Of a DNA stretch of 64,000 bases, positions 5,193-34,221 are shown piece by piece. Position numbers and translations under genes: made by a program. The notes below the pieces were generated by a model. The model was not told the origin of the DNA. It searched no databases and saw only the letters and a program-made list of their open reading frames with translations. The stretch spans positions 1-64,000 of the forward strand of contig JAUCBJ010008394.1 of the NCBI GenBank assembly GCA_032718475.1. The letters run 5' to 3'. How positions within the stretch are numbered: position 1 is the stretch's first letter; the number at the start of each line of letters is the position of its first letter. This DNA comes from Nemertoderma westbladi (Eukaryota > Animalia > Xenacoelomorpha).

Positions 5193-5605
5193 ACCATAAA
5201 TACATGTATTGAAATATCTGGCAACTCAGAAATGGATTCAACATCACTGTAATGAAAGGATGACCAAATATGAACCGAAATCGTCAATGCCTTCCCATAT
5301 TCCAACCAGTCAATTCCTAATATAACTCCAATAGAAAATGTCCCTTAAAACCAGAAACAATGAATTTGATACACTAACAGGAAAAATTAATAGATAACAA
5401 ATAGAAGTAATGATATCATCATTCCACAATACATCGGACATCATTCCACAATACAGAATCTGAAAGGTAAATTCATAGGCGATTTCAAACAGAGAAGAAA
5501 AAGATATTCTCCAATACACTGAGGCAGCTGAAGACCCAACAACTTGAGAATAACTCAAGTTAACGAATGTGGGAGTAATAAGTAGAAAATCACAACAATC
5601 ACCTC

Positions 5606-6830
5606 TGTAAAAGCTTTTGCGGAATTGCCCGGTTATTTTTCCTTATTTTTTCCGTAAAATACTCTGTAGTTGGTTTAGTAGGCGTAAGAGGCCGTATTAT
5701 TGCTGTATCGGTGTTTTTTAGAGGACCTAAGAGCTATTTCCTCCGTATGTGTACTTTGGGGGACATGGTTGGTGATTCTATGGCAATTCTATGACGCAAA
5801 ATAGCTAGATCCTCTTGAAACAGTAGTTACTATGACGACGGTTAACAGCTGAGCTGTATACGTGTCGATTTTCTTTGTTCTACGGTGCCTCTCAGTTCAG
5901 TCAACCAATCAGAGCGTTTTTACTGTTCTTGTACAGAAATTTCCTAGAAATCACGCAATGCTTTATGGGCAGTGTTATCATTCAGTCCTTAGCCAAGAAA
6001 GAACGGCTTTTGGAATATTTGTGCTTTTCTGCTTTTAGCCTAACACTAGTAGGCTTAATTATAAGGACATATATCCGTTATCACACTGGTCACACTGGGT
6101 AACTCAATGGTTAACAACTTACTCAATGCTTGGCTGGTCTTGTCGTGCATACTTTTATAACGTTATACTGCTATTTACTGTCGGTTATTCATTATATGGT
6201 TGATGAAATATTATATCGGAATACTGATCAATAGTCCGACATCCCAATCTTCTTGATATACTAAAGGTTAGAGAGACCGGTTACAGATAAACGATTGTGA
6301 CTTATGTTAAAGTGGTTTGAAGTGAATCTAATGTTATCTGATAGACCCTACATGAGTCGGTCTGTGTTCCTTTTATATGTGACTAAAATCAGTGAAGATC
6401 GGCAGATCAGTGTGCAGTATTGTGCAGCATTGTGTATGAGTGAGACTGATAACGAAGCATTTCCTAAAGAATGCGCCATATATGTGAATTGTAACTAAGC
6501 CATATCGTTGCATGTAGTTTAAGTCATAGCTCTGTTTATATAGATAGAGCGCCACGTCCAAAAGGAACTGTTAATATTCCCCGAAGGTGAATAATATTGT
6601 CAGAGATTATATAATACTGTCAGTCGAATAATACATTAGGCTTACATAGCAATAAGATTAAGCCGTCGAAGTCAATCTCCCGGGTATATCCAGCGGGTGA
6701 ATGATCGCGCACAGATTGGTTTCAACTAGTGTAGTGAATCAAATACTTGTCAGAGGCTAAAAGCGATTTATTATCTAGAAGACATCCTAATTTGGCGGGT
6801 TAAACTGCCAAAGGTCTGAAAGCGCGAACA
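5606..6830 (+). repeat. 5' LTR (1225 bp)
   Basis: TGTAAAAGC...GCGCGAACA, directly repeated at 16740-17965. Confidence 0.95.
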
Positions 6831-6841
6831 ATAACGGATAT
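6831..6841 (+). promoter_or_regulatory. Putative self-priming primer-binding site
   Basis: ATAACGGATAT immediately follows the LTR and lacks the TGG of tRNA-type PBSs. It is the exact reverse complement of LTR 6071-6081 (ATATCCGTTAT). Confidence 0.6.
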
Positions 6842-7176
6842 TGCTTCTGGATTGCGGTGTAAACAATCTAGTAGAAAGTACCGGTCGACCGGTAACCAGT
6901 AGGCCTGACTGCCTGATCATCCGGACCGGTACCTACTTACGGTACAGGTACAGCAGTATTATTCGATTTGATTATTATATGCCGGTAGGTCTTAATAATT
7001 AATCGGGGACGCCTGGTTTTTATTGGGATTTTACTTAGGCCTATTTCTGTCAGTTTTATTTATTTGTAGGCCAGTATTGAGCAGAAGGCGTGTAAGCCCG
7101 CTCAGATTGTACAGATAATTTGTAGGCTTGACTGTTGGCTAACTGTTGATTAGGTCTGAACGGATTGCAGTGCATG

Positions 7177-7690
7177 TAGAGTGTATGTCCGATAAAGAAC
7201 GGTTAGGAAGTAGGGGCAGCCATAGCTGTAAGGTAAACCCCCATCTAAAGAATAAGTCGTACTACTGGGTTAGAACGCATACTACTTAACCATTTCGGAG
7301 TCTGCATGTCCTGTGGTTTATTTAGGCTTGATAGTAGTCTGCCATCGTTTGGTCTGTACTTTGTTTGTGTAGTCTGTGCGGGTAGCGTATAATTTTATTT
7401 AGAAAATTTATAGGCTGGATAGTTGTCTGGCTGTTGTTGGGTTTGAGGAAATTTCGGTGTGTGTAGAGCATCTGTCCGATAAAGAACGGTTAGGAAGTAG
7501 GGGCAGCCATCGCTGTAAGGTAAACCCCCATCTAAAGAATAAGTCGTACTACTGGGTTAGAACGCATACTACTTAATCATTTCAGAGTCTGCATATACCG
7601 TAGTTTGTTTAGGCTTGATAGTAGTCTGTCAGTATTTGGTCTGCATTTTGTTTGAATGGTTTGTACGCGTAGCGTAATATTTATTATTCA
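7177..7690 (+). repeat. ~290-bp-period duplication in the retroelement 5' leader
   Basis: TGTCCGATAAAGAACGGTTAGGAAGTAGGGGCAGCCAT...CTTGATAGTAGTCTG occurs at ~7186 and ~7474. Confidence 0.85.
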
Positions 7691-9014
7691 GAGTTTATGC
7701 GATTATTCGCAACATTCATTCCCCAAGTTTATTCCTACAGTAATTGTGTTTGTTATACATACCGTTATAGTTAAATTAACCCCGGTACTACATCAGGGCT
7801 GCTCGGCGTAGGTAAAGACTGGAGATTTTGTGCTTTGGTCACTCCAGCAGATGCCGTGGTTCTTTTAGCTGTTCAAGTATTTTAACTACTAATTATTTGT
7901 TATACAAGTACTTGTACCTAATTTAGGGTTTAGTGTACAGTGCTTTCCGAAAGCAATTAGTGTGTAGGCAGTGTATTTGTGTTGTAAAGTGGTTAATTGG
8001 CACGTTGGTTCTGGTAGACCGCGGTAATTAACTTCTAGGTAGGGACACTCCGTGATACATAACGTAGTACCTATAGCGATACGGTTATAGGTCGTCAGGC
8101 GGTGGTATTTTCCTATCTGGACAACGCAGTATATTTACTACTACTTATTATTTTCAAATACCGTAGTAACCTGTCCGTTGTAATAACCAGATATTCTAAC
8201 CCTTTGTTAGGCTGGTTAGTAGACTTCTTGTAAAATTACCCTAAAAATTCGTATTTGTGTATTTGTAATTAAATTTTTGTGTTTATTTAGAGATTGTAAT
8301 CTCACCCCGAATTGTACGTAATTTGTAGTATTAAGTAACTTAGGTAAATTAGAATTATTTGTTTTAGTGTCTAACAAGTAGCACTCCACTAAGAGCGCAC
8401 AGCTTATGTGTAGTGACTCTCCCAGAAATAATAACATTTATTTCAACATTGACAAAACCCATTAAACGGGTATATATATATTATAAATCAACTCAAACGA
8501 TTTATAAATAGTAGGCCTACCATATAACAATTAGGTCTCAATATCAGTTGGACTACTGCTCAAATAACTGTAATAAAGTAAGTTAAAGTAACCAAGTAGC
8601 CCTTAAAATTCAGAAATTCAATTATTCTAAAATAATTGATATACCGGTATTTACAATAGGCTTATTCTTTTAATTTATAAATATAGGCTGAAATCATACC
8701 GGTATTCTGTAATTAATTCTAGTTAATAATTATACTTATATATACTATAAGTAGGCTGTATACTGGTATTCACGATAGGCCTATTATATATTTATATATT
8801 TGTACTAAAATTATACCGGTATTCTGTAACAAACCTAGTCTGTAATAATACTTATATATATACTATAAGCATACCGGTATTCTAATATATTATATATATC
8901 ACGCTACACTGAGTAGCAGTATCGGTAATTAATTGTTAGGCTAACAGTGATACTGAATTACTAGACTTGCTTTAACTGTAATATAGCAGTAGGCATTCAA
9001 CTATACAATCAAAC

Positions 9015-12000
9015 ATGGCTGACACAAGGCAAACTCTGTCAGATAGTCTCCTAGAAACAACAGCCTGTTTCTCAGATCAAAGTGTAGAGAATCTCAGACC
9101 AAGGTCTGAAACCCATCATACTGTAAGAAGGGCGAGGTGGTTGTGTCAGTGGTTGTTGGCAGTGGTTGTGTCAGAACCTAGGTTGGTAGAAGCGATTTCG
9201 CAATTTGCGAAGTTAGTGAAGCGCCGTTGGTCTGCCATAGGCACTCGGGCCCAAGTCAAGCGGGATCAAGAAGCAGCTGTCAAACAGCAGCAACATCCTA
9301 GCCAAGAACCTAGTTTTCAGCGGCCCGATAGCTCCAGTAGTTCGGATACTGATGAGAGGACGCCCGAACGCGGAGCAAAGATGGCGGATAAGGTTTATGA
9401 TGAGCGGCCAACCTATGAAGAATCAACCGACGCCATTTTTTCTCAAGAAGAAAGCGAAGTGACAGCAGAGAAACCGCATAAGAGGGATGCTATTGACATC
9501 TATCTGTCAGACTATCAACGCTTTGTAGGAGATGAAGAGTTGAGGAGAAGGTTGGAGGGGCTTAGCCCTAATAGTGAAGGAGCCCAGCGTGTGTTGGATG
9601 CAATCGATGTGGATAGGTTAGCTGCGAACCAAGCTAAATTCAATGAAAGCATCCGCATCGCTAAGGTTCAAGAAGAACAAGTAAGGAAAAAACGTATAGA
9701 AGACAGAAAGATAGCAGCAGTGGCAGAGGCAGAAAGAAAAGCGACCTTGGCAGAAGCAGCGGCAGAGGCAAAAGCGGCAGCAGCAGAAGCAGCGGCAGAG
9801 GCAAAAGCGGCAGCAGCAGAAGCAGCGGCAGAGGCAAAAGCGGCAGCGGCAGAGGCAAAAGCGGCAGCGGTGGCGGAAGCAGAACGGAGAGCGGCTGAAG
9901 AGATCGCCCAACTGGAGTTGGAAAATCTTCAAGAGAAACAAGACAACTTTAATAAACAGTTAACAGCTAGTAATATGCAGATGATGAGTCGATCTACTCC
10001 CAAAAGACAGGGGTATACATCATCTGAGGAAGGCGATACCACCGATACTGAAGGCAAAGGAAATCGATCTCGCCTAAGCAGACGTAAAAGAACATCCCAC
10101 CGTCAAAAATTGCCTGATTTGCCTCCAGCTGTTAGAAGGCAACTAAATAACACCTACTTAGGTAGTACAGAACCCACAGACCAAATAATTACAATAGAGA
10201 GACTCCCTACTATAGTAGATGAGCCCGAAATAGTTAGGTCTGTTCCCGAAGCCACCCTTTCGGTCGTAGAGACACCTGTACTCCCTGAACCTACCTCTCA
10301 ATTCCCTTTGCACAGCACTAAGCTACCTGTGCCCAGCAGAACAGCCCATGAGACAGCTCATGCCCTGGACTCCGAGCGAAATATTCATGATTTGTCGCCC
10401 GTTGTCCCTCGTCCGCCCGCTACAACGTTGGCGAATCCCGCTTCGGCGGTTGAATGGGTGGATGAGAGACGACGGGGGATGGATCTCCTGCTCGGACAGA
10501 TGCAGGAGACCGTTCAGCAATTCAAGGGCACAGTAAGGGAAAGTAGGTTAGAGTTGCAAGAAGTGCAGCAAAGTATCGCGCTAGAATGCGATAAATTAGT
10601 AAATACACAAAGGGGTATACCACCACCCCCTGTAACAATGTGTCAACCTGTTAGGTCTGAAGTATCTCATGCGCAAGGTGTGGAGCCTACACACATCTAT
10701 ACTGCTAGCGAAGTAGAAACTCCTATAGTGAACCCTATTAAGGGTAATTATAGACCTGTTGATAATGATATTCCCTATAGACCGGATCATAATCCGAGAA
10801 ATTTATATACCGATAACTCGATATTAAATAACACAATGGCCCAAGAAAGTTTTACGCGTCAAATGGCTAGAACCGAAGCCCGTCAAGCGGTAAAGGTGGG
10901 AGAGATCGTCAAGTTCAATGGAGATGAGATGAAATGGTTACCTTTTAATGAATATTACAAAGATAACATACAGAACTCTGTACTATCTAATGGAGAGAAA
11001 CTTAGATTCCTCATCGAGTGCTTGGAAGGATCTCCCAAGTTAATGGCGTTAAAGTTTATTGGACATCCAGACGGATTAAGACAAGTTTGGGATACACTAA
11101 ACATCAGGTATGGTAATAGGAATAACATAGCTAGGTATTTGTATGCAAAATTAATGGCGCCCCGAAAGTTTCTTAGCAGCGGGATTATAGAGTTTTCCGA
11201 TGAGATTCAGGAGATCTGTAGACAATTAGATTGGCTAGGTAAGTCTCATGAATACCAGAATTCTATGGTTGTAGGAGCCTTAGCATCTACTTTGCCCAAG
11301 GGTGGAGTAGGTACACGCTGGGACAAGAAAGTGTTATATATGATGGAACAACAACGACGAGACCCTACCATGGCTGATCTCATGTCATTCTTAGATGGAG
11401 AAGTGAAATTACAGCTCCTAAGGCAGTCCAGAGAGAAGACACTGGAAAACAAGGTAAGTGAGAAACCCGTTTCTAGGAGAAGGGTAACACCAGTGTGTTA
11501 TACAGACGACGGCGAAAGCCAGACTTCTCAAGGAGAGGATAGCGGGAAAGACACTGAAAGATCTTATTATGTCAATAAAACGCCTAAAGACCAGGTAAGT
11601 AAATTCAAGTCTCGAACCAATGACAGGAGAGAACAGGTAAGAAAAACTCCTCCTACGTCTCCCAAGAGAATTCAGGTGAGAAAGCCCGAAGAAAGAACGA
11701 ACGTGCACCACACAGCACATGTTAAAGTAAGTAACATCAAGCCCAAATGTGTGCTGTGCGACGGGCCCCACCGTTTAAATGCGTGTGATAAATTCCTGAG
11801 GAAATCTCTAAAGGACAGACGTGAAGTCATGTGGGATAAGCGGTTGTGTTATAATTGCCTCAGACGAGGACACCAACGGCGAACCTGTTACTCCGACGCA
11901 AGGTGTGCAAAGTGCGGTGCGAAACATCATATCTTGTTGCACACTGAATTCGAGCGAAATAGTCCGAGTCAGGTGAGTGATTCCGAACTACATGTCCAAT

Positions 12001-13487
12001 TCAGTGATGTGAACGACACTGATCAATCTGAGATGGAAGGATTCTATACGGACGAATTCTCCGACCAAAACGAATCCTGTTACTTAATAAACACCACCGC
12101 AGTGTATCGAGCACTCATGTATGAGAAAGACACAGACAGCGACCTCACCCTAACTACTTCAGATCAACAACAATCTTGGAAAGCGCCAACTTCAAATGTA
12201 GGAATCCGAGAATTTCCTGTAGTCCAGTTACGGGTCCACGGACCTCAGAAGAGCTATATAGTGAACGCCCTCCTGGACTCCGGCAGCACAGGAACATTCA
12301 TCGATAAAGAACTAGCCGAAGACATCTTTGCTGGACAACCCAAGTTCCGAACCAAGCTAAACATGTCAGGGATCATGCAGGTTTGGAAATCTGCTGTGGC
12401 TGCCGACTATTATATAGGTGAGTTGTCCACTCCACAGGATAAACTAGGAGAACACAGTATAAGGTCAGTCAAAATGGTGGCAATAAAGAACTTCACTACC
12501 ACCCAAGTGGAACCTTATAATTGGGACGAAGATGATCATGCCCAACAACTTAACATTCCTAGATTCGACACCGATTATCCTGGAGTACAAATATTAATCG
12601 GTCAAAACGCGCATGAGGCGCTGGAGACATTGGAGAAACGACCTGCTCAACCGCAACCACTTCAGACCTATGCGGTAAGAACTAGAGTAGGTTGGTACCT
12701 TACTGGACCTTCCCGAAGAACGCTCAGAGAAAGACTGCTTCAAGATCGCGTCTGCCAGGTGAGTGAATGGGAAGATGATACTAGTGAGGGAGACGACCCG
12801 ACTGAGGGAACACCATACTCCTCAGATAATGACGATATTAGCTCCAATGTAGATCAATGGAGATATTGTCCCAAGAAGTTTAATCCAACTGACATCGCTT
12901 CCAGAGGAGCAACTCCTCAAGAACTGACAGATACTACAGACCGGTTAGGTGAACCCGACTTCCTGAGTAAGGAGGATGAATGGCCTCCCCATCTTACTCC
13001 GACTGAGATTAGACCAGCCAAGGGAGCGGAGAAAGTCAAACCTAAAACCCGGACGGGTGGATCGGAGTTATTTGAACCCGGGATAGATCTGTCGGTATTA
13101 CATATTGCCAGGGACGACGCCGTGGATCTGGACCTCCCCACCGCGAGTGGATCCTTCATGATGATCAGAGAGAGCGATTGGAGCTCTGGAACATCAGACG
13201 TCTCGCAGGGACTCTCACCTCTCCTGCAGGGAGCGACGGACCACCATAGCTCCTGGAATCGGCTTTGTAAGGCCGTCGTGTACCTAGAGCGATGTTTCTA
13301 TCGTCACTATTCCAGGACGAAGAGGAAACCTGGAATTGTATTCGGGATGCAGCGACTCAATCACCCAGTCGGTCGTTTGTGCTTACCGGAAGGGAATGGA
13401 GGACTCTCCGGAAACTGTGGAAGGCAAGATTCTCTTCCCACGACCACCTCCCTAATCCTTCAAACATCTAGGGACTCCATAACGTAA
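9015..13487 (+). CDS. gag-pro: BEL/Pao Gag-protease polyprotein (1490 aa) lacking RT and integrase
   Basis: Ala/Glu-rich coiled-coil repeat. Gag core (KFNGD..KW..F...KLRFL..CLEG). Triple knuckle CVLCDGPHRLNAC/CYNCLRRGHQRRTC/CAKCGAKHHILLH. Aspartic protease ALLDSGSTGTFI. RNase H-end remnant QWRYCPKKFNPTDIASRG and SSWNRL. No YxDD motif or integrase core. Confidence 0.9.
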   Translation: MADTRQTLSDSLLETTACFSDQSVENLRPRSETHHTVRRARWLCQWLLAVVVSEPRLVEAISQFAKLVKRRWSAIGTRAQVKRDQEAAVKQQQHPSQEPSFQRPDSSSSSDTDERTPERGAKMADKVYDERPTYEESTDAIFSQEESEVTAEKPHKRDAIDIYLSDYQRFVGDEELRRRLEGLSPNSEGAQRVLDAIDVDRLAANQAKFNESIRIAKVQEEQVRKKRIEDRKIAAVAEAERKATLAEAAAEAKAAAAEAAAEAKAAAAEAAAEAKAAAAEAKAAAVAEAERRAAEEIAQLELENLQEKQDNFNKQLTASNMQMMSRSTPKRQGYTSSEEGDTTDTEGKGNRSRLSRRKRTSHRQKLPDLPPAVRRQLNNTYLGSTEPTDQIITIERLPTIVDEPEIVRSVPEATLSVVETPVLPEPTSQFPLHSTKLPVPSRTAHETAHALDSERNIHDLSPVVPRPPATTLANPASAVEWVDERRRGMDLLLGQMQETVQQFKGTVRESRLELQEVQQSIALECDKLVNTQRGIPPPPVTMCQPVRSEVSHAQGVEPTHIYTASEVETPIVNPIKGNYRPVDNDIPYRPDHNPRNLYTDNSILNNTMAQESFTRQMARTEARQAVKVGEIVKFNGDEMKWLPFNEYYKDNIQNSVLSNGEKLRFLIECLEGSPKLMALKFIGHPDGLRQVWDTLNIRYGNRNNIARYLYAKLMAPRKFLSSGIIEFSDEIQEICRQLDWLGKSHEYQNSMVVGALASTLPKGGVGTRWDKKVLYMMEQQRRDPTMADLMSFLDGEVKLQLLRQSREKTLENKVSEKPVSRRRVTPVCYTDDGESQTSQGEDSGKDTERSYYVNKTPKDQVSKFKSRTNDRREQVRKTPPTSPKRIQVRKPEERTNVHHTAHVKVSNIKPKCVLCDGPHRLNACDKFLRKSLKDRREVMWDKRLCYNCLRRGHQRRTCYSDARCAKCGAKHHILLHTEFERNSPSQVSDSELHVQFSDVNDTDQSEMEGFYTDEFSDQNESCYLINTTAVYRALMYEKDTDSDLTLTTSDQQQSWKAPTSNVGIREFPVVQLRVHGPQKSYIVNALLDSGSTGTFIDKELAEDIFAGQPKFRTKLNMSGIMQVWKSAVAADYYIGELSTPQDKLGEHSIRSVKMVAIKNFTTTQVEPYNWDEDDHAQQLNIPRFDTDYPGVQILIGQNAHEALETLEKRPAQPQPLQTYAVRTRVGWYLTGPSRRTLRERLLQDRVCQVSEWEDDTSEGDDPTEGTPYSSDNDDISSNVDQWRYCPKKFNPTDIASRGATPQELTDTTDRLGEPDFLSKEDEWPPHLTPTEIRPAKGAEKVKPKTRTGGSELFEPGIDLSVLHIARDDAVDLDLPTASGSFMMIRESDWSSGTSDVSQGLSPLLQGATDHHSSWNRLCKAVVYLERCFYRHYSRTKRKPGIVFGMQRLNHPVGRLCLPEGNGGLSGNCGRQDSLPTTTSLILQTSRDSIT

Positions 13488-15275
13488 CAACATATGGAGT
13501 GGGTGTGTGACTCTATTATTTTATATTATTTTATTATTTTTATATTTCTGTATGTATTACTATGTAATTTTATTATAATCGTTTTATTTAATTTAGTAGA
13601 ATATTATTTAGCGATTATTTAGTAGAATAGTGCAATATATTCGTGTTTATTGCGTACGTAATTACTTATATTATATTTAGTGTGACGGTGCGAAACAAGT
13701 ATTTTTCTCTTTCCTTACTGTCCGTGTTATATTATAAATACGTGACTACAGTAAGATGAAATATCCGTACTTATTAAAGTACAATAAAGCCACTACTATA
13801 TTCAAGTATTATTGGTAGGCAGAGTATTAGGAATGCAAAGTTCAGATCCTCGTGTCTCAGCTAAACCAAGCTCTGGGTAGACCTTGGAAACGACTTGCCT
13901 CTTCACACTGACATTGCTTCGTGCGATATTGCTCTCATACCGTATATTAAATAATACATATAGTAGCGTGATGTCCCTCTAACAGTAGCGTGAAACGCAA
14001 ATAAATCTGTTAAACCTTTTGACCATCTGTAATTCTAGTCGATTAAGATATCGCGGCACCCACCGATATACTTGAAAGACAAATTCTAGAATCAGTGGTT
14101 AACGTCCCCAGACAAGTTCTGGAATAAATCGGTGCCCATCTCAAATATTAATTATTTAATATTTGCAAATCTAATAAATCAAAATCTGTAAAATTCAGAT
14201 CCTTCAACAATTCTAGTCAATTAAGACATCGTAGCATTTACCGATATTCTTAAAAAGACAATTTTCATAGAATTAAGGATCTTGTGTCCCCAGACATGTA
14301 ATAGAATCAAAACATGTCAATTTAATTATCAAATAATAAAATTTCAGGGAATAAATTTAAATTCATGCCTTTTAATGAATTTAATAAATTGCCATTTTTA
14401 CGCAATTTATAACATTCCCAAAATTCCATTAATTAATAGATCAAGGGAGCGGAGATTTATCTTCTTATGCGTATGAGTGTGCGAAAGTCTCCCAAACATA
14501 GTCAATAGCCGATAAAATTCATAAAGCCATGTATAAAACAGGACATTGACCATTAAAGAATTACTATTAAATAACATCCCAGATCTGTATGCATTGGAAT
14601 TACCCTAATTCTACCGCTAGCTTTGCATAATGTCACCATAGCAACAACCACGCTAGAATTAGAATTGAGTTAAAAGAACAATAGAAAGCTTGTCCCATTG
14701 AATAGCATAGGGAATAAATAGCGCACTGCTAGTATCCAAGGATACATGATAATAACGTGACATTCTGGAAGGCACTGACTAACGGACAAGTGACCCGAGT
14801 GTGTGTAATTTGTGGCAAGTTGTGTGTGTGGTTTTTGTGAGTTTATAGGCGAATGTTACTACTAAGGTGTGTTTACAGTAGCGAGTCGCAATTGTGAAAG
14901 TAACCCTAACTCTCCAGTAAGAACCTGAGGTGTATCTAAGCCTTTGGGACGGACAGTCGAGTGACTTGTGCCGGTTGTCGTTGTCTTTGTGCGGCTACGT
15001 CGTTGGCGAAAGTACAGCGGAGACGACACATCGGCGCTGAGGATCTCGCACTGTCCGGGGGCTGATTGGGGTAGGCAGCGACGCCCGCTCGCCTAAATAT
15101 AAACTCATTATAATATGGATAAACTTATATAGCAGATATGATTGAGTTGATAGATGATGATCTTGGTATCAGGGAGCGATATACTCTACCTTTACAAGCG
15201 TTTGTTGATAGCTTGATACGCAGCGACGCTGGTCCAACTACTACGGAGGACGATGGTCGTTATATCTAACCGCCA

Positions 15276-15833
15276 ATGTCCCGGGAGCAACTTGCGCGTG
15301 GGTTAGACTGTAGAAAATTCACCGCTCGCTATACGCATCGTAATGGTACGTATATGGACTTCTTAACTACTGGTCATCCTATCGACCTACACGATACGAA
15401 CGATATAGACACCGAAAGGGAAATGGTTTTATTTAAATATCATACCCAGCGGAGTCGAAACGATAAATCGAGAATAGAACACGAGAACTCTATTCGAAAC
15501 AGACTCGAGAGGGAAGACGTTGAAGAACCTGATAAACATCGCGACTTCAACGACTATCTAGAATTCCTAAGAGAGACCTATCTCAATATTGCCAGTCAAC
15601 AAAACCTCGAAACTCGATATCCTCAAGGTATACATTCAGACCCTATGATGAAACTCAAACGGCTCTATTTTACGATGATGTATCTTACCGCCGATCGACC
15701 GCTACCTGTCGTTCCAGATAGCTTCGAACAGATGGAGGAATATTGTAAAACTGGAGAGCGATCACCCGCGTTTCCCCTTCAAGACGTGCGTCTTTGGTAT
15801 TATTACGATAAATGCCCTAGACCCAGCCAATAA
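15276..15833 (+). CDS. Orphan accessory ORF in the 3' region of the LTR element (possibly starting at 15138, with a premature stop)
   Basis: 185-aa ATG ORF with a protein-like charged composition. An in-frame ATG at 15138 is separated from it by one TAA (15267-15269). TATA-like TAAATATAAA at ~15094. Confidence 0.5.
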   Translation: MSREQLARGLDCRKFTARYTHRNGTYMDFLTTGHPIDLHDTNDIDTEREMVLFKYHTQRSRNDKSRIEHENSIRNRLEREDVEEPDKHRDFNDYLEFLRETYLNIASQQNLETRYPQGIHSDPMMKLKRLYFTMMYLTADRPLPVVPDSFEQMEEYCKTGERSPAFPLQDVRLWYYYDKCPRPSQ

Positions 15834-16739
15834 ACGGAAAGACATAAATAAACATCCACGGAAACGTTGTGTTAAACACAGTTGTGCTCGTTATATTTAC
15901 TGGAGTTTCGAGCGAAACTTGTTTGACGTATCACCTATGCTCACTCGGCTCGAACGATCCTGGAGTAAACCTACGATCAGAGTCCCGGAATACTCGGTCA
16001 AACCTCCTCATTCCTTAGTTGGACCTCAGACCTGCGATCCTGGTGGTGTCGCGGATCCTCGCGGACTGTATTCACTGTTCAAAGATCTAGTGCTACCCTA
16101 ACAATTAATCGGTAACACTCCGACAGTGATTTCTAGCTAGCCGCTCATCTTACCTAGCCGGATTGTGACGCGGACACCTAATATCACTATCCAACCGTAT
16201 GGTCGTCCCCGTTTAACGCGATACAACCCTTCATCAAGGTGAAGGAGAGCGTTGTACGAAACGAGTTAAACGCTATTCTATAAAGATCAAAAAAGAAACC
16301 TGCGTTTGTTCAGATAAACGTAAGTTATAACAGTAAGTCCAATCGATAAACGAATTGGCCTTATCTCAGTTCGATTGGGAAATCTCGAATCTCTAAGAAG
16401 ATATCAAGCTTAGAAAACCCTATTCTCTGCGAGAGTTTTGGACGAACGTATCCCATGACAAGCGGAGGAAAATCAGCTCGAGGAGAAGCATATCGAAATG
16501 GACGAGACACCGACCGTAAACCCAAACCTTCTAATGCAATTGTATTGCACCCTTTACCCAGGAGTTATAGCCTTTCTAGTAAAGTGGCTCGCCCCAAAGA
16601 GAAAAGGACTCTTGCTGGCCTCGGGAAACTGCGTGAACGCCGTCCGCGCAAGAAAAACTAACTGTTTAGAGTATCTTTATGTCTTAGAAACTGTGATTTT
16701 TCTATTTTATAGACTGAAAATCCCATTTTCTGGGAGCGG

Positions 16740-17965
16740 TGTAAAAGCTTTTGCGGAATTGCCCGGTTATTTTTCCTTATTTTTTCCGTAAAATAGTCTG
16801 TAGTTGGTTTAGTAGGCGTAAGAGGCCGTATTATTGCTGTATCGGTGTTTTTTAGAGGACCTAAGAGCTATTTCCTCCGTATGTGTACTTTGGGGGACAT
16901 GGTTGGTGATTCTATGGCAATTCTATGACGCAAAATAGCTAGATCCTCTTGAAACAGTAGTTACTATGACGACGGTTAACAGCTGAGCTGTATACGTGTC
17001 GATTTTCTTTGTTCTACGGTGCCTCTCAGTTCAGTCAACCAATCAGAGCGTTTTTACTGTTCTTGTACAGAAATTTCCTAGAAATCACGCAATGCTTTAT
17101 GGGCAGTGTTATCATTCAGTCCTTAGCCAAGAAAGAACATGCTTTTGGAATATTTGTGCTTTTCTGCTTTTAGCCTAACACTAGTAGGCTTAATTATAAG
17201 GACATATATCCGTTATCACACTGGTCACACTGGGTAACTCAATGGTTAACAACTTACTCAATGCTTGGCTGGTCTTGTCGTGCATACTTTTATAACGTTA
17301 TACTGCTATTTACTGTCGGTTATTCATTATATGGTTGATGAAATATTATATCGGAATACTGATCAATAGTCCGACATCCCAATCTTCTTGATATACTAAA
17401 GGTTAGAGAGACCGGTTACAGATAAACGATTGTGACTTATGTTAAAGTGGTTTGAAGTGAATCTAATGTTATCTGATAGACCCTACATGAGTCGGTCTGT
17501 GTTCCTTTTATATGTGACTAAAATCAGTGAAGATCGGCAGATCAGTGTGCAGTATTGTGCAGCATTGTGTATGAGTGAGACTGATAACGAAGCATTTCCT
17601 AAAGAATGCACCATATATGTGAATTGTAACTAAGCCATATCGTTGCATGTAGTTTAAGTCATAGCTCTGTTTATATAGATAGAGCACCACGTCCAAAAGG
17701 AACTGTTAATATTCCCCGAAGGTGAATAATATTGTCAGAGATTATATAATACTGTCAGTCGAATAATACATTAGGCTTACATAGCAATAAGATTAAGCCG
17801 TCGAAGTCAATCTCCCGGGTATATCCAGCGGGTGAATGATCGCGCACAGATTGGTTTCAACTAGTGTAGTGAATCAAATACTTGTCAGAGGCTAAAAGCG
17901 ATTTATTATCTAGAAGACATCCTAATTTGGCGGGTTAAACTGCCAAAGGTCTGAAAGCGCGAACA
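16740..17965 (+). repeat. 3' LTR (1226 bp), preceded by a short purine tract GGGAGCGG
   Basis: Repeat of 5606-6830, followed by TSD ACCTC. Confidence 0.95.
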
Positions 17966-17970
17966 ACCTC

Positions 17971-19000: not shown

Positions 19001-20653
19001 GCTTTGGACAGTGTTATTTATATAACCAACAGCGTACTGTGTATAGCATTTCAATTATTTGTGTTCTTGTGTTGCATCATCAATTAATTTTACTGTCAAT
19101 AAATATCTAATCTAATCTATGCCATATGGACTAGAGAAAATATTATTATCTGAGTCAGTAGAGAAGACATCATACTTTACAGACAGATGATTACTGCATC
19201 CCCTTCTCAAGCATCATCTGTATGACTTCTTCTCCACACAATAACTCTACCTACAAGCCAAACTTTATATCCACTTTCAGAGATACTACGAAGGGGAAGG
19301 TTGAGATGGTTCAGGCACATAGTGAGAATGATAGTTAAGTACCTTCCCACATTGCCCTCAATCTGAAAATGCCATCAGGTGAAAGGATGAAAAGTGGGAG
19401 GCCATCTATTACTTTCTGTCAAACTGCTTCTGAGGGACTTCGCGCCACTACTACTACTATTAATTGTCCTGCCCTTAACCCAGAACCAAAGGGGTTTTAT
19501 TCCAATCAATTTAAGTACAATTTCTTCAAATTTGTAATAAGAATTAATTAGTATGCCATTAAAATGGAAATATTTTATGGAAAATTTAAGCAAAAACCAT
19601 TAATTTAAGCTAAAATATTTATTTAATATTCATTGATTATGGTTGGATGCTTGCCCTACCATGCCACAGTACTATGGTATCTAATAGCTGTATCACCATG
19701 CATGCGTGTTCATGACCTACTATAGATACGACCCGCTAAGCTGCTGCAAAGCCCCTAAATTTAGTGGGCCAGTTATTTCTCTCAGATAGAACCCCTGAAA
19801 CAATATGTCTAGCGCGTCAAAAGTACTTGTCCGTAACTAAAATTATATCCTCTTTCAGATGAGACAAATAAAAAGATAATAGCTCCAGTAATTTTCGAGA
19901 TATGAGGCATTCCTGGCACCCATACCATATCAGCAGTTTTCGGAATTGATATGGTATAACTATTAAACTATAGTACTATGCTTTATCGGTTTGTTGATTT
20001 CATTATTAGTAATCGAAAGCAAGATTAGAAGCAAAATTTTCTTTTTTTTATTTATCAATAGATAGTAAAAGAGCACCAAAAGTGCAAGTATCACATTTTT
20101 CAAAAGTGGTAAATTGGCCGTACAATGTCAGAATGTGCTGATTTCATGTTAGTTCATTTAGAGTTCATTTATTCCTCTACATATCTAGATATCGAAGAGT
20201 TGTGTAATATAACAACATACAACAAAATATCGTACCTTGTTGATTACGGCATTTTTGGATACGTGTCAATGTGCGGCACGAAAAATACAAGTAGCAGAAA
20301 TTTCATAATGAAAAATCATTACCAAATCAACCTGGTTTATAAAATTTGGGGTTTTTTGGGATGCTAATCACGAATATGACACTGGAAAATATCGTACCTT
20401 GTTGATTACGGCTTTTTTTGGATACGTGTCAATGTGCGGCACAAAAAATACAAGTAGCACAAATTCCGTTTCAGGTGGCGAAAATTATTTATCTTGTTTT
20501 CATTGCCTTCATTCATAATTTGTTCAATTTGCCCACCATGTAGGAAAAAAGCCTTTATTTTTGCCACTTAATTAGTTATTTATATACCATATAATTATAA
20601 TATACAAGTGATACACTGTACGTATATATATATTTATACTCACAGTATAGAAG

Positions 20654-21964
20654 ATGTCAGATGAAGAGGCTCCCATAACCCCAAGTTCAATGAATAATAG
20701 TCGTTCAAATGAAAATTACCATCGAAAAGGATGGAGACTTTATATATTAGTGGCTATGTTGCTGAGTATCCAAGCAATACCAGGTTGGTGTCATGATCTA
20801 TTAGAGTCGTTCTTCCCAATTGTTGTTGAAGAACGAGGTTGGTCAAAGACTCTGATTGGTGCATTACTTTCAACGTTTTCAATGGTGAGACTGACAATAT
20901 TTATAGCTTGCCCTCATTGTTTTAACAATTGGGGAACTCATATATCTTTGGGCCTATTTGGCGTCATTGGGGCTCTTTCCCAGTTAGCGTTTGGGTTTGT
21001 AGAATATATTCCTAATCATAGCAATGGATTATATATATTTACATGTTTTTCACTGCGCATCATCGAAGCTGTTGGTCTCAATGTCAGTTTTATGTATTCA
21101 TTCAGTTTGTTGATGGAATTGTGCCCCATGCAAAGAACATTAATAGCTAGTCTAACTGTTGTTAGTAGCAACATAGGATACATGCTTGCACCGGGTTTTG
21201 GTTCTACAGTTTTTGCTGCTTTGGGTTTTGAATTCCCATTTATAATATCGGGATTAACGTTTCTCATTATCACCATTTACTGTTGGATAGAATCACCAGC
21301 TTACATTCAAGACAGATGTGAATCTAATGAAGCCAGACCAACCTATCTTGGAGCTCTGAAGAACCCAGAAATTACACTTATATTTATTTTGAATGGATAT
21401 TTTAGGATAGTATCAGCATTTACAGTTGCCAACTATGCTGCCTACATTCATCACACCTACAATGTGAACCAATACAATATTGGTCGGATATATATGATAT
21501 TTCCCAGTATTCAATCCTTCATAGGTATAATAATGAGCTTATTGATGAAGAAAATGAAGACCATCTTTCCTACTGTATTTGGAGTACTTATAATAGCAGT
21601 ATCAATGCAACTAATAGGCCCTACAGAACTTCTGGGTTTACCTCAATATCTCTCAATCTCTATTACTGGATGTGCAATTCTCGGAATCGGTGCAGGATTA
21701 TACATGACCCCTGCATTAGAAACGCAAACACAACTGGCTGTGAATGTCTGTGGTTACCAAGACAACGTTGACACCAGATCTCTCCTCCAACAAATGTTTC
21801 GAATTTCAATGTCAACTGGAATAATTATAGGTCCCGTATTTGGTGGATTTCTCAATGATTATTTTGGAATGCAACCAGCTTGTTCTCTTATAAGTCTGTT
21901 GGGTTTGCCTTTTCTTTTCTCTTTAGTGGCTGTATTGGGTATTAGAAGTCGTCCTTGTGGCTAG
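20654..21964 (+). CDS. MFS transporter, SLC18B1-like (436 aa, intronless CDS)
   Basis: About 12 hydrophobic segments. Motifs FFPIVVEERGWS, LRIIEAVG, GYMLAPGFGS..F..LGFEFPF and IGPVFGGFL resemble SLC18B1-type MFS proteins. Confidence 0.85.
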   Translation: MSDEEAPITPSSMNNSRSNENYHRKGWRLYILVAMLLSIQAIPGWCHDLLESFFPIVVEERGWSKTLIGALLSTFSMVRLTIFIACPHCFNNWGTHISLGLFGVIGALSQLAFGFVEYIPNHSNGLYIFTCFSLRIIEAVGLNVSFMYSFSLLMELCPMQRTLIASLTVVSSNIGYMLAPGFGSTVFAALGFEFPFIISGLTFLIITIYCWIESPAYIQDRCESNEARPTYLGALKNPEITLIFILNGYFRIVSAFTVANYAAYIHHTYNVNQYNIGRIYMIFPSIQSFIGIIMSLLMKKMKTIFPTVFGVLIIAVSMQLIGPTELLGLPQYLSISITGCAILGIGAGLYMTPALETQTQLAVNVCGYQDNVDTRSLLQQMFRISMSTGIIIGPVFGGFLNDYFGMQPACSLISLLGLPFLFSLVAVLGIRSRPCG

Positions 21965-25220: not shown

Positions 25221-27358
25221 GTCTGTGGGGGGGGGGGGGGGGGGGGGGTGGTGATATCCACCGTTTGCCATCCTCATCACAATATGATCGACTGATGACA
25301 GTGAACAAATGCCCTTATGGGTGAGTGAGTACAAAACAAAGACCAAAGACACTGTACAAAGACCTGTGCAAAGCACATGTGTTAACTTTCCTTTATTGTT
25401 TTGGTTCTCCCAATACGCCTCTGTATCCTGCACCTTTTCCAACCTGTTCTTTCAAATTAAGATGCGGATGATCTAGCAAATGTCATGGGTCATGGTGACG
25501 CGCTTTCTCATTTTTTCTCTGTAAATATGTTTTTTCTCATTTTTTCCATTTCTCTGTAGGTCGGTTCTTGCCCAGGTCACTGGTCACTGGTATCATTAGA
25601 TAAAGAGTTTGTTTTCTTGGCTGGACCTATGTCTAAGCCAACAATTACAATTAATGATGAAAAAAAAAATCATCTTAGTTTTAATTAATCTTTGATGTTT
25701 TTCAATTTCTGAACAACTTATTACAATACCATTCATTAAAGTTGCATTAACAGCTCAACTACAATTCATTTATTTATTAAGGACCAAACATCAAAGTCTA
25801 ACATTTGTTGTCATATTAATGCAATTCATCTTCTATTGTAGGTACCAGTATCGGTATATATTCCGTCGTAAGATACACCATATGGAGGAAAAAATTAATA
25901 AATATGAGATACCCTATGATAATACAATACATTGTTACTATGTAAATACATATAATCCGGGAGATATAAGGGCTTTCCTTTGTGCAGAACCTTGCATATT
26001 TTCCAATATCCATTTTTGTTGTTGTTGTCCGGCGGTCCTCTCTTCCACATAGATTAAAAAAAATTTAATTAAAAAAAATGCAGCCCAAAATTTTAAATAA
26101 TAATGTTTAAGATATAATCAAATATGGCACAATGTAGGCCTTAATTTAAAAGTACCAAAAATAAGGTCCTAATAAGCTTAGTTGCATTGGTCCTAACAGG
26201 CTGATAGGCTATTCAAGTAGTTGTAGCTAGCATGCAGTGCAATAGTGCCTGCAAGGCCATTTGTGCCTGCCTAGCAGCTAGGCATTCCGGTAACAGTTTG
26301 TTTCAGTTTGTCATCAGTTTAGTCTGTGCAACAGTAGGCCTAGGTTTAGGCCCAAGGCGTACAATGTACCAGTAGTTTCAATTTGTCAGTCCTGTTAGTC
26401 TGTACAGCTGAGGACTAGACGGTCTGAAACATAACAATGGGATGTACACTGTACAGTAGGCCTATGATGGAGGGACCATGACTTTGCAGTTGTTGTTGCA
26501 TTGGCTTTAGATTCTAAAGAGGAGGCCATTGTAATAAGCATGTAACTTTTGTAAATATTAATGTGTCACAGGGTGTAATTTTGAGACTCAATAGTCGGGC
26601 AAATAGTAGCTGCCACAGTAAAAACTTACTCAGTTTATCAATACTGATAATGCGTTTAGAAGCACTACAGGTAGGGGTGCATCAGAAGAGAAAGCCATGA
26701 TTGTAGAACTACAGTAGGCTGCTCAGCCTACTGTAGTGACATGTAATAACTACAGTAGTGAGTGACTGTAGTAATAACAACTGACAGTTTATTTGCTTCC
26801 AATGTAATTTTTTAAAATGTTTTTTAAATTATAATCAGATGTCTTTAGCAAGTATACAAGTTGTATAGTATAGCATTTAAGATTTAAAAGCTTATTTAAT
26901 AATTGCATTTAATAATTCGTATTAAAAAAGGTGGGAAATTCAAAAAATTTGAGTTGATTTCTAATGGCAGTGATTTTTTATGTCCTTTTATTTGACTTTT
27001 TTTGTCCTCCTTTTTTTACGAATTGTGCATAATGACTTTTGTTGTCCCTTTAATGACTTTTGTTGTCCTTTTAATGACTTTTTATTGTATTTCTTAAAAC
27101 TGTCAGACTGCTGATTTCTGGACTGTCAGACAGTTGATTTCAACATGCCTATGCCAAAACATTCAAAATTTGTTGATTTCTGGTCTGTCGGACAGTTGGT
27201 TTCACTATGCCTGTGCCAAAACATTCCATGATTTATAGACTATGAGATAGATTTCCATATGCGCCTGTGGTAAAAGACTCTAAATTTAATAGTTTGTGGT
27301 TGTTGTCGATAATCGATTACCACATGACGTAGCAAAACACTCTATAGCCAAAAACAAT

Positions 27359-27950
27359 TACCAATTGATGGAAAGGAGCAGGTTAAGACCGAATTTTCTA
27401 ACCCAAACAATAAACAGTCACTTTACCAAATGAAGGAAAGGAGCAGGTTACAGAGGCGGGATTTTCTAACCAAAACAATAAACAGTCACTTTAGCAAATC
27501 AGGGAAAGGAACAGGTTACAGAGACGGGATTTTCTAACCAAAACAATAAACGATAACATTACCAATTGAGAGAAAGGAGCAGGTTACAGAGGCGGGATTT
27601 TCTAACCAAAACAATAAACAATCACTTTACCAAATCAGGGAAAGGAGCAGGTTACAGAGACGGAATTTCTAACCAAAACAATAAACGATAACATTACCAA
27701 TTGAGAGAAAGGAGCAGGTTACAGAGGCGGGATTTCCTAACCAAAACAATAAACGATCACTTAACTAATTGAGGGAAAGGGGCAGGTTACAGAGGCGGGA
27801 TTTTCTAACCAAAACAATAAACAGTCACTTTACAAAATGAAGGAAAGGAGCAGGTTACAGAGGCGGGCCTTTCTAACCAAAACAATAAACGGCCACTTTA
27901 CCAAATCAGGGAAAGGAGCAGGTTACACAGGCGGGATTTTCTAACCAAAT
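27359..27950 (+). repeat. 68-bp minisatellite, 9 units
   Basis: GAAAGGAGCAGGTTACAGAGGCGGGATTTTCTAACCAAAACAATAAAC recurs at 27371, 27436, 27504, 27572, 27640, 27707, 27775, 27843 and 27911. Confidence 0.95.
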
Positions 27951-28096
27951 CAACCGGTAGGCCTACCAGTACCGTATTTAAATGGTTGGCTACACAGTAG
28001 GCCTACAGCAGTACTGGTGCCGGTACCGGTACTAAAATACCTGCTTTATACCTACTTCTGTACATGCAATACTGCAAAATAGTGCTCTATATACTA

Positions 28097-28880: not shown

Positions 28881-30449
28881 ACATTTTTCAATATCATATT
28901 TGCACTACTTGTTTTTTCATGCCCCAGGGGGCACATTCGAAATTACGAAAAAATGTCTCGAATGTTATTATATTTGAGTTCTATAATCGTGATAAGTGTC
29001 CAAAAAAACCGCTATATACTGCAAATAAATTAATTTTAGTGAGCCATAAAATCTTTTGAAAGTTTTCACACAAAAAATACTGGAGATGGGTGCCTGAACA
29101 CAGCACGAAAACTAACATAGCGATGTAAATGGTGTTTGCTCTGTTGGATAGCCCATTAAATTTTAGGAAAAGTTGATGTACTGTACATTGTACAACATCA
29201 CTACATGTTGTTGTAATGCCCTAGGTTGATGGCACATACAACCTCACTACGTGATGTTGTAGTGCACATATGTCCAATACGATATACTGAGTTTTATGTG
29301 GGTGCTTCTAGTAATATGTCTGATAAGGACTATATTGAGAATAGTCTGTTAACCATTACTAATTGATAAGTATATAAGAAGTATACTTTATTTAAGTATA
29401 ATTGGAGTTACTCCATAACAAATGAATACCAATAACTTTCCTGTTTTGTGTCATATTGTGCAGCAATAAATCTAATCTGATCTCTATCATTGCAATTCAT
29501 CCAAGCAATGTGATCGACAATTATGAAGCACCCTATAACCAAAGAAAGCTGGGTAGCTCAGTTAGTTGGGCACCAAACTTTCAATATATTGGCTGTAGCT
29601 TTGAGTCCAGCCAGGATACTAGGGTAACGGTGGCCGATAAAATGACGACCAGTTAAATTTCCGGAAGAAAACATGGGATAGGACTAGTACCGGGTAGCAG
29701 CTATTGAGAGATGAGCCTTTGTCGGGTCGCCTCTGACTTCTGCTATTACCAAAGCCCAGCTCCACCCTTGAATCCGACCACTTAAAAAAATGTCTGTCCC
29801 ACTACAGACTGTATGCATCAGCCTGTTCAACTTTGTATATATATAGCAAGCTACATTGTGGATTGAACAAACATGGTAACAAGTCAATGACCTCCTCCTT
29901 GTTTCAAGTTTCAATGTTTGCTCATGGGCACTACTGGACTTAATAACATTGTGGGGTGTATTGCTGACCTGTGACAATGGGTTTTGGTAATTGGTAATGT
30001 GCAACATATAAACTCACTGTTAATGCAAATGGATAGGGGTGCACCAAATAGCAATTTTTGACTCCAGCCGGATTGTATCCCCCATGAATTGTTCCAGATA
30101 GCCAACCAGTTGGATGTCTGGCAAGATATTAAATACTTTTATTTGCAGGATATAACAATGGGCAATCATTGCCCTATATATATGGAGTAAATTATCAGTT
30201 ATATTTGAAGCTAAATATAACGAACCCATTTATAGAAAACTTAAATAAAGAGACTTTCAATAAACCATATTATAAGAGGTGGTAAAAAATTTATTCGTAC
30301 TAGTTTGCATTGCATTCGGTTTATAATCACTTCCCCAACTACGTAGGTAAAAATTAAATGATTTAGCAACCTCTTAATTGTCTATTAATATTTACCATAT
30401 AAATAGCAAGTGATACAGGTATATGCAATATACATACACAGTATAGAAT

Positions 30450-31758
30450 ATGTCAGATGAGGAGGCTCCCGTAACCTCAAGTTCAATGAATGATAGTCAA
30501 ACAAATCAAAATGACCATCGAAAAGGCTGGAGACTTTATATGTTAGTGGCCATGTTGCTGATGTATCAAATGATACCGGGTTGGTGTCATAATCTATTAG
30601 AGTCCTTCTTCCCAATTGTTGTTGAAGAACGTGGTTGGTCAAAGACTCTGATTGGTGCATTACTTTCAACGCTTTCAATGGTGAGACTTCCAATATTTCT
30701 AACTTGCACTCATTCTGTTAACAATTGGGGAACTCATATCTCTTTGGGTCTATTTGGCATCATTGGAGCTGTTTCCCAGTTAGCATTTGGGTTTGTAGAA
30801 TATATTCCTAATCATAGCAACGGATTATATATATTTGTTTGTTTTTCACTTCGCATCATCGAAGCTGTTGGTCTCAATATCAGTTTTATGTATTCATTCA
30901 GTTTATTGATGGAAATGTGGCCGGCCCAAAGAACTTTATTAGCCAGTGCAGCAGTTACTTGTAGCAGCCTGGGATACATGCTTGCACCGGTTTTTGGTTC
31001 TACAGTTTTTGCTGCTTTGGGTTTTGAATTCCCATTTATAATTATCAGGTTTGATGTTTCTCATGATAGTCCTTTACTGTTGGATAGAGTCGCCAGCTTA
31101 CATTCAAGACAGATGTGAATCTAAAGAAATTAGACCGACTTATCTTGGGGTTCTGAAGAATCCAGCAATAATGCTTATATTTATTTTGCAAACATATTGG
31201 ATAATGCTTGCACAATTTACTCTTGCCAATTATGCTGCCTACATTCATCACACCTACAATGTGAACCAGTATAATATTGGTCGAATTTATATGATATTTC
31301 CTAGTATCCAAACCTTTACAGGTGTAATAATGAGTTTCATCATGAAGAAATTGATGACTACCTTACCAACAGTAATAGGAGTAATGGTAGTAGCAGTGTC
31401 AATGCAACTAATAGGGCCTACAGAACTTCTTGGTTTACCTCATTATCTCTCAATCTCTGTCACTGGATGTGCATTCCTCGGGCTCGGTATAGGATTATTC
31501 ATGACCCCTGCACTGGAAACGCAAACACAACTGGCTGTGAATGTCTGTGGTTACCGAGACAACGTTGACACCAGATCTCTCCTCCAACAAATGTTTCGAA
31601 TTTCAATGTCAAGTGGAATAATTACAGGTCCCGTTTTTGGAGGATTTCTCAATGATTATTTTGGAATGCAAACAGCCTGTTCGATTCTCAGTCTGTTGGG
31701 GTTGCCTTTTCTTTTCTCTTTAGTGGCTGTGTTTGCTTTTCGATTTCGTGTTGGCTAG
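30450..31758 (+). pseudogene. SLC18B1-like MFS paralog with one +1 frameshift (pseudogene or sequence error)
   Basis: Collinear with the other two copies. ATAATTATCA at ~31038-31047 versus ATAATATC(A/G) in the intact copies. 1309 bp = 436 codons + 1. Confidence 0.85.
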
Positions 31759-34221
31759 TTTTGCTAGGCGAATTTTAAATGAATTTTGTTGTATTTTGCT
31801 CTTTTGATAATAGTTTGAATTTAATTAGGGCTATTGGTTTTATGGTTCGTACCTTACTAAATCCTACTAAATTTAATTAACAAATAAATGTTTATTCTTG
31901 ATATTGTAAAACCGAAACACTTTATCGTTAGGTAGCTAATTTTAACAATAGTCATTCAAATTATGTATAAAAAAGCCACCTCCATTTACATTATAACAAT
32001 TATATTAACATTATAATGTTTAATTAGTAAATTATTATGTTTTATTTTAGTTATTGAGAAATAATTATATCTACTATTTATTCAGAACATAAATAACTGC
32101 AGAATATTGGAATCGAATAGTCTATTTTATTTATGTTCGACATACAGACAAGCACAGACAACACATACCCACCACCAGATAGTACATTGTTCATAGCCTG
32201 GTGACTGACAGAAGAGTGACAGAGAGTACCAGTACCAGTTGGATAAAACCACTACCAAGCTGGGTGTCACTTAAACTTGAACTTTATTGCCATCAATTGA
32301 TACATTTAATACATGATGCACCCAAGGAAAAAAGGCAAACACTATAGATTAGAGAGATACCAGTCTAATGAAATGACTTATATAAGAGGGCAGAAAGTGG
32401 CGGAATGTTATACATACAAAGGTGTAGTAGTTCGTTGATTTTAATTCAGAGAGGCTTTAGTTTTTTGTTTTTTGTTATGTCCATTCCCTGTTTTATACTT
32501 TTTTGTGAGTATTTTTTACGTATATAGCATGACTTTTGACTTTTTATGTCCGTATTTCTTCAAACAGTCACTCAGTTGATTTCACATTGTCCGTGTCAAA
32601 GGCATTCAAATTCGTTGAAATATGGACTGTCAGATGAGATTATTGTAGTATTTGAAAAATATGATTTATGGACAGTGAGATAGAATTCCTTATGACAGTG
32701 GTAAAAGACTCTAGATTTTATGATTTCTGGACGTTCAGGGCCCCAACTGATTAGGTTATCTGTTCGGAGAACACTGAAACTGTGGCCGGCCACGGAACTA
32801 GTCTTCCAAATAGGGTTATATAGAATTCTGGAAGTTGTGGATGGGACGGAGCAATCTCAGTAACTAAGCGAAAGCGAATAATAAGATGTCCCTAGACCCC
32901 CCTGCCCAAATTTAGTTACAAGACTTTTTGCCATATATAATATGTTTAAAAAAGTCTATAGTTCTCCGGCTAGGGCCCATTTGAGTAAAAAAATACACTT
33001 CCCTAGCAACCTTGTTGCAATGGAGCTACAGTCAACGGCTAATGCTACAAACTTGGGACTGGCGCCAAACTGTAGACAGCATATGGTTTTAATGGAGAAG
33101 CGTTATTTTCTAAGCTGCCTGATTGTGATATTGGCCACGATCAGCAAAGATCGTTTTTGATCACATGACACGGACAAGATCACGGACACTCAGGAATTGC
33201 TACATGGAAAAATTTTCAATCGCAAAAAGATTCCTCGCCATCGATTTAGTGGCGGGTCCCTTCCTGCTCAAAACTATCCTTCCTGCTCAAAACTATTCTA
33301 TCTTCTATTCTATCTACTTCATAAAATCGTAACTTAAGCATGTTGGGATTAAACAATTACTGTAAGAAACGTTCACAGCACCGTCGATAAAAAAAAATTG
33401 GCTTGATCGGTCACCAACTGGTTCTCGAGATATGCTTCCTGATCATAAAAGATTTTTTTCGATCAGTTTCGGTTGTTTCAGAAGTACTGCAAAACTACCA
33501 ATGAGACCCCCGACTTTTTTTTATTTATTGACTACTATGGGACAGGGGCAACTTTGGTATATTTTCCAAAAAGGAATCTGGTCAGGCCATGATCAGGAAA
33601 GATCATGTTTTTGGTGTTTTTTCAAAGATCAAGTCCTCTAAGTTCATTGTATGGAAAAACTTAACATTACAAAAGGATTCCTCACCCTCGACTTAAGGGA
33701 GGGGGGGGGGGGGGTGTGGGGTAGGCAAAATTTGGTTATAAACATTCAATTCTAGGGGGTCAAAACTGAAGATCATGATCACGCAAAGACCAGTCACGCT
33801 AAAATCGAATCTAAGCATTTTTCTAATAGACATTCATTCTAAGAAATTCTGTCCATTCTGAGTTGATAAAACAAATTGGCTCAAATGGCCCAGCGGTTCT
33901 CGAGATAGCCTTCGTCACTTTCGTGATCAAAAGTGCCAAAATGTCCCCAAGCAATGTGCATTGCTATGGAGCAACAGCCACAACGGCTAATGCTACGGAC
34001 TTCGGACCGGCCCAAACTGTAGGCAGCATAATGTTTCTATGGAAAATTGTTATTTTCTAAGCTGCCCGATCATGATCTTGGCAGCGATCAGAAAGATCAT
34101 TTATGATCAAAAATTGAACACAGAAGAATTGCCCCTATTGAAAAAGTTTCAATCACAAAAAGATTCAGCACTATAGATTTGGTGGGGGTAGTCAAAATCT
34201 GGAAAGAAAAAATCAATTCTG

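Follow-up and report, generated by a model that had tools for sequence, protein, structure and literature searches.

A BEL/Pao derivative in Nemertoderma westbladi with a candidate Tf1-like self-primer in its LTR

The window analyzed here, a stretch of 64,000 nt from a contig of Nemertoderma westbladi (JAUCBJ010008394.1), carries at 5606–17965 an LTR element with the LTR pair, TSD, and PPT of BEL/Pao elements (Table 1). Its two LTRs differ in 5 columns of 1226 (99.6% identity). No further copy was found inside the 64-kb window, and Rfam gave no matches within the element; the 185-aa ORF in its 3′ region has no Pfam match and no informative Atlas match. Elsewhere in the window there are three MFS transporter ORFs, uninterrupted or frameshifted, which form a local paralog set (20651–21964, 30447–31758, and 50506–51888); a minus-strand ORF with a DDE_Tnp_IS1595 (ISXO2-like) transposase domain (48579–49889), which we take to be Merlin-like; two RVT_1 fragments without a BEL profile match, probably from non-LTR elements (52679–53299 and 61259–61888); and tandem arrays with units of 22 nt (2312–2754), 68 nt (27322–28067), and 15/17 nt (34158–35550).

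Table 1. Features of the BEL/Pao derivative and its immediate flanks, in window coordinates.
Feature	Position	Strand	Basis or remark
TSD ACCTC, left copy	5601..5605	+	flank comparison
5′ LTR, 1225 nt, TGT...ACA	5606..6830	+	LTR alignment
CCAAT box, likely promoter element, 166 nt upstream of the 11-mer	5905..5909	+	inferred
TATA-like TATAAG	6060..6065	+	too near for a start at 6069–6071; would point to ~6083–6092
CA dinucleotide; predicted start A6069	6068..6069	+	inferred by analogy with seven relatives
Candidate self-primer 11-mer ATATCCGTTAT	6071..6081	+	predicted cleavage after 6081
U5 hairpin, 8-bp stem with one G-U	6791..6812	+	not common to relatives
PBS, non-tRNA, ATAACGGATAT	6831..6841	+	offset 0 from LTR edge
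Long 5′ leader	6842..9014	+	internal duplications 7113–7403/7401–7692 and 8640–8751/8759–8869
Single ORF, 1490 aa: Gag, aspartic protease, then directly post-RNase H segment	9015..13487	+	
DUF1759 and Cys/His knuckles in Gag part of the 1490-aa ORF			DUF1759 at aa 634–762
Post-RNase H segment remnant	12840..13019	+	profile positions 1180–1238
3′ region without BEL pol similarity	13488..16731	+	includes 185-aa ORF 15276–15833
PPT, short purine-rich tract GGGAGCGG	16732..16739	+	directly 5′ of 3′ LTR
3′ LTR, 1226 nt, TGT...ACA	16740..17965	+	second copy of the 11-mer at 17206–17216
TSD ACCTC, right copy	17966..17970	+	flank comparison

An initial sequence-only reading had called this a BEL/Pao element, which its Gag and protease bear out, without mentioning that RT, integrase, and most of RNase H are missing. 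A profile built from 30 BEL proteins matches nt 9825–12743 (E 1e-74), covering Gag and protease and then skipping to the segment behind RNase H. Within the 1490-aa ORF the DUF1759 match is clear (E 3.3e-12) and that to aspartic protease weak (E 0.017). No frame of the element matches the RT or integrase of the BEL profile; the RNase H core is missing in frame, most of RNase H is absent from the element, and the distance from the protease motif to the post-RNase H motif is 196 aa, as against ~700 in intact homologs. With RT gone, the PR-RT-RH-IN pol by which BEL/Pao membership is judged in RT phylogenies is incomplete, and an RT tree is impossible. Of the 11 highest-ranking relatives scanned, nine have DUF1759, Peptidase_A17 (specific to Pao), or both. 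The protein relatives found are all distant, with 17–27% identity over shared columns, and viral contigs gave none; the sole 20-nt match in a metagenome scan (L001), without further similarity, was put down to chance. Two other BEL proteins, P0014 and P0001, also seem to have a short distance from protease to post-RNase H motif or no RT match, so similar RT deletions may recur among BEL elements. Because BEL/Pao Gag and protease are kept and RT and integrase are absent, the copy is by its Gag and protease a young, non-autonomous BEL/Pao derivative with RT and integrase deleted. Its family is abundant, since summed contig depth in DNA runs X1 and X3 places the element at hundreds to thousands of times its flank, a ratio that is not a copy number.

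The 11 nt directly following the 5′ LTR, ATAACGGATAT, are the exact reverse complement of 6071–6081 within that LTR, and of 17206–17216 in the 3′ LTR. The match ends at 11 nt on either side, where T6070 faces T6842 and C6082 faces A6830, and it abuts the LTR edge; on all of these points the letters agree with the sequence-only reading. When the LTR was shuffled with its dinucleotides preserved, 15 of 20,000 versions contained a complement of the 11-mer, or 31 of 20,000 if offsets of 0–3 are allowed. Among 9,899 internal 11-mers, six have a complement in the LTR, and under a looser score that includes spliced matches three of 2,000 internal positions get to 11. A self-primed element of Tf1 type is expected to have a PBS complementary to its own LTR over at least 10 nt and 0–5 nt from the LTR end; in this copy the values are 11 nt and 0. 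A second exact 11-nt complement between leader and LTR joins 6956–6966 with 6624–6634. Within the family, at least three contigs (short sides under 30 letters) replace the sequence from 1 to 2 nt behind the 11-mer, a weak hint; among the variants in 40 of 664 rows none falls in either 11-mer, which proves nothing on covariation.

A tRNA-type PBS is not seen in this position. As had been noted from the sequence, there is no TGG directly behind the LTR, the nearest lying 17 nt downstream at 6848; this was rejected as a displaced tRNA site, its complement being without a T-psi-C motif. The complement of the region after the LTR likewise contains no T-psi-C motif, and no CCA end at offsets 0–16. 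Inspection for TGG and T-psi-C found no counterpart of the 18-nt PBS with which BEL/Pao elements are expected to pair the 3′ end of a host tRNA. LTRs that are 99.6% identical, together with the TSD, show that the element was reverse transcribed recently although it has no tRNA site.

A scan of genome contigs yielded 21 further BEL loci, all on eukaryote-type contigs within prokaryotic genome bins, for which we infer a eukaryotic host origin. Eighteen were examined (L012, L019, and L022, on contigs of 1.0–1.3 kb, were left out), and these are equally divided between loci with a usable 5′ LTR end (L002, L004, L008, L009, L011, L016, L018, L020, and L021) and loci without one (L003, L005, L006, L007, L010, L013, L014, L015, and L017). 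Seven of the nine ends were taken from an LTR pair; that of L004, whose 3′ LTR is truncated where its contig stops, and that of L011, from its similarity to L009, were deduced. The LTR pair of L021 (7256–7960) has the ends TA...AA, not TG...CA, and its reading frame, like that of the window element, jumps over the RT portion of the profile.

A TGG-type PBS is present in two of the nine, L016 and L020, neither of which has a self-complement. The remaining seven all pair 11–14 nt with their own LTR, 0–4 nt from the LTR end. In L002 the pairing is contiguous; in L004, L008, L009, L011, L018, and L021 it is found only across a GT[A/G]AG...YAG intron of 318–1022 nt in the LTR. Random internal positions equal the score in 0–5 of 2,000 trials for each of the seven. 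In a cross test of nine elements, scores of at least 11 were confined to pairs of PBS and LTR from one and the same element, and mismatched pairs reached at most 10. There are six different PBS sequences among the seven relatives, each matching its own LTR, so that PBS and primer co-vary across distant BEL families in 7 of 7 cases; these are kin, not independent cases. L009 scores 8 with the stricter acceptor filter and 11 with a looser one set afterwards. L009 and L011, two sister families, have LTRs that align in patches only, yet both retain the two halves of the primer, the splice sites, and the PBS. Four collapsed contigs (L005, L006, L007, and L014), scanned blind, gave neither a self-complement nor a tRNA site, and a match in L013 proved to be a slicing artifact.

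Conservation of the complementarity in relatives had been proposed as a check, and it is seen in all seven distant BEL elements lacking TGG, most with an intron-split primer. Because seven of seven non-TGG relatives pair with their own LTR, by different letters, and neither of the TGG relatives does, putative self-priming is supported for BEL elements at the group level; the claim made for this copy is thereby partly supported.

The same counts bear on whether the 11-nt match arose by chance, with priming by some unrecognized host RNA, either a tRNA fragment such as the half-tRNA of some copia elements or another small RNA. A one-off probability of ~1e-3 is not small when many windows are scanned, and half-tRNA primers are known in copia lineages (PMC6317226). 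Chance does not readily account for the match between PBS and own LTR in all of seven relatives, among which the PBS takes six different sequences, however, and tRNA priming is opposed by the absence of a CCA end at offsets 0–16 and of a T-psi-C motif. By the usual tRNA layout, the PBS complement is also unlike a half-tRNA ending just behind the anticodon loop. This origin is accordingly regarded as improbable.

In a tree of 421 Gag-protease columns from 43 sequences (shortened search, rooted on L020; L021 and P0001, with zero aligned columns, were dropped), the element is sister to the clade holding the six self-complementary loci present, and apart from the TGG loci L016 and L020. Support for this position (SH-aLRT 72.6/UFBoot 93) is below the usual thresholds and the element is on a long branch, so its place beside the self-complementary clade is given moderate confidence.

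The sequence-only reading placed the transcription start near 6071, with the caveat that no TATA box lies ~30 nt upstream. There is indeed none, though a TATA-like TATAAG is found at 6060; the start itself is better moved slightly. Each of the eight self-complementary elements, counting this one, has a CA whose A stands 0–2 nt before the first paired base (A at −2 in this element, L002, L004, L008, and L018), against a background for CA of 0.11–0.19 per element. CA is a common Pol II initiator. The pattern was first seen on six elements, and L004 and L011, added later, both fit; its product over seven families, ~1e-6, is overstated, being post hoc on six elements from related families. Because CA precedes the paired stretch by 0–2 nt in all eight elements, the analogy suggests a start near A6069 as more likely than 6071, with a capped primer of ~13 nt. 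More generally, a CA start would imply primers of 11–15 nt and, in the spliced forms, first exons of 5–8 nt.

Transcription could conceivably begin downstream of the 11-mer, at ~6083–6092 as directed by TATAAG. The 11-mer would then belong to U3, and only its 3′ LTR copy (17206–17216) would pair with the PBS, either to signal 5′–3′ circularization or, cleaved from the 3′ end of a second RNA, to act as primer. The Inr-like sequence TCACACT occurs at 6081 and 6090, the latter ~32 nt from the TATA-like word, and the 749-nt loop of the self-primer model is unusual. In Tf2, an alternative downstream start gives an RNA unfit for reverse transcription (PMC5341516), and since Tf2 has such a start, both could coexist in this element. 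Among the seven relatives, however, six have no TATA-like word ~30 nt upstream of the primer, and all have CA directly before it; the splice donor of the six intron-split relatives, 3–7 nt into the paired stretch, would also fit a cap-proximal primer. A start downstream of the 11-mer is considered unlikely.

With a start at 6069 or 6071, folds running to 6900–6960 include the 11-nt duplex in the MFE structure, with pair probabilities mostly 0.7–0.99; it is lost from folds that begin at 6041 or 5606 or run on to 7100. From primer end to LTR end there are 749 nt here, as against 44–153 nt in the relatives. With a putative intron, 6099–6753 or 6099–6778, spliced out, the loop would fall within the range of the relatives; the donor at 6099 is weak, and is replaced in one family variant. 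A splice-built primer was rejected for this copy, the best GT/GC-AG junction yielding at most 10 Watson-Crick pairs vs. 11 unspliced. U3 also contains a strong donor (5684) and a pyrimidine-rich acceptor (6038), 355 nt apart; as an intron for the primer this pair was discarded, since it lies upstream of the predicted start, its junction does not pair with the PBS, and the donor is not directly preceded by a CA.

A hairpin in U5, just upstream of the PBS, had been offered as part of the self-priming signature. It is present, but does not serve as a marker: the last 50 nt of U5 have a fold z of only −1.7, and the hairpin is not shared by the relatives, so it was rejected as a diagnostic feature of self-complementary elements. 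A U5-IR-like stem adjoining the PBS of Tf1 was reportedly described by Lin and Levin in 1998.

The pairing might also be real and purely structural, an LTR–leader helix for packaging, dimerization, or translation control in a non-autonomous element, supplying no primer. This copy does require packaging in trans, and the second leader–LTR complement described above would suit such a role. Yet the end of the duplex coincides with the LTR edge, the point at which minus-strand synthesis has to begin, and falls within 0–4 nt of it in the relatives; no other primer site is evident. A helix of this kind, with no part in priming, seems very improbable.

Among the closest known parallels is Tf1, whose RNA pairs its first 11 bases with the PBS and is cut by RNase H between the 11th base and the 12th (PMC7175516 and PMC4600332). 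As in Tf1 and Tf2 of Schizosaccharomyces pombe, Tj1, and the Tf1/sushi group, it is 11 nt of the LTR, and not a tRNA, to which the PBS is complementary. Unlike the Tf1/sushi elements, which are Ty3/gypsy, the window element has a BEL/Pao Gag and protease, and no RT or RNase H of its own; its proteins are of BEL/Pao type, and do not form a Ty3/gypsy chromovirus polyprotein. It further differs from Tf1 in its predicted 2-nt unpaired 5′ overhang and 749-nt loop, which are known here from sequence alone, and in that the primer is intron-split in most of its BEL relatives. Judged by sequence criteria, it would work like Tf1, yet is a BEL/Pao derivative and not a member of Tf1/sushi.

The ICTV profile of Belpaoviridae describes replication as primed by a host tRNA, for which there is an 18-nt PBS, and as poorly understood (PMC8742986). 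With BEL/Pao the element shares its DUF1759 Gag, Cys/His knuckles, aspartic protease, post-RNase H motif, TG...CA LTRs, and 5-bp TSD; unlike the elements of that profile, it has no tRNA PBS, RT, or integrase (PMC8742986). Self-priming had been described in the sequence-only reading as known from Tf1/sushi-type Gypsy elements. This is correct, and it has also been proposed for plant Tcn1 chromoviruses and copia TAR elements (Houba, Osr-1), by prediction from an LTR complement of at least 10 nt just after the LTR (PMC6317226, available part). The 11 nt of this element reach that published length; it belongs to a different superfamily and host than Tcn1 and TAR, and the same part of PMC6317226 reports no intron-split primer for either.

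For BEL/Pao itself, neither PBS nor tRNA is mentioned in the main text of a BEL survey (PMC3118150) or of the Sinbad paper (PMC554778), and the available parts of PMC3601003, PMC8220671, PMC6934838, and PMC5443660 report no BEL self-priming. No report of it was found in the full-text literature searched; an earlier mention in Repbase, subscription journals, or supplements is possible.

Tf1-like self-priming by a BEL/Pao element without RT, with RT supplied in trans by an autonomous partner, is probably the correct reading of this locus. Transcription would begin at the CA, at A6069, giving two unpaired bases followed by the 11-mer, and the 5′ end of the RNA is predicted to fold back onto 6831–6841. 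The RNase H of the partner RT would cut after 6081, as in Tf1, leaving a 3′ OH on a capped primer of ~13 nt at the LTR edge. Minus-strand strong-stop DNA would then copy U5 and R down to 6082, and the primer sequence would be restored from the 3′ LTR following strand transfer. The primer is in one piece here, as in L002; the other six relatives would splice a first exon of 5–8 nt.

We lean slightly toward a broader proposal, in which a wide BEL/Pao clade, including this high-copy family, gave up tRNA priming, its primer being the capped first 11–15 nt of its own RNA from a CA initiator. Most members would splice a 5–8-nt first exon across an LTR intron, so that the host spliceosome would license reverse transcription, and intron-free forms would carry the primer ready-made. 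If such a self-priming BEL clade exists, a third LTR superfamily would join Ty3/gypsy (Tf1/sushi, Tcn1) and copia (TAR) in this mode of priming. BEL elements without a recognizable PBS would thereby be accounted for, and they would presumably lie beyond control by host tRNA fragments. The relatives suggest, in addition, unusually short first exons, and splicing as a replication switch.
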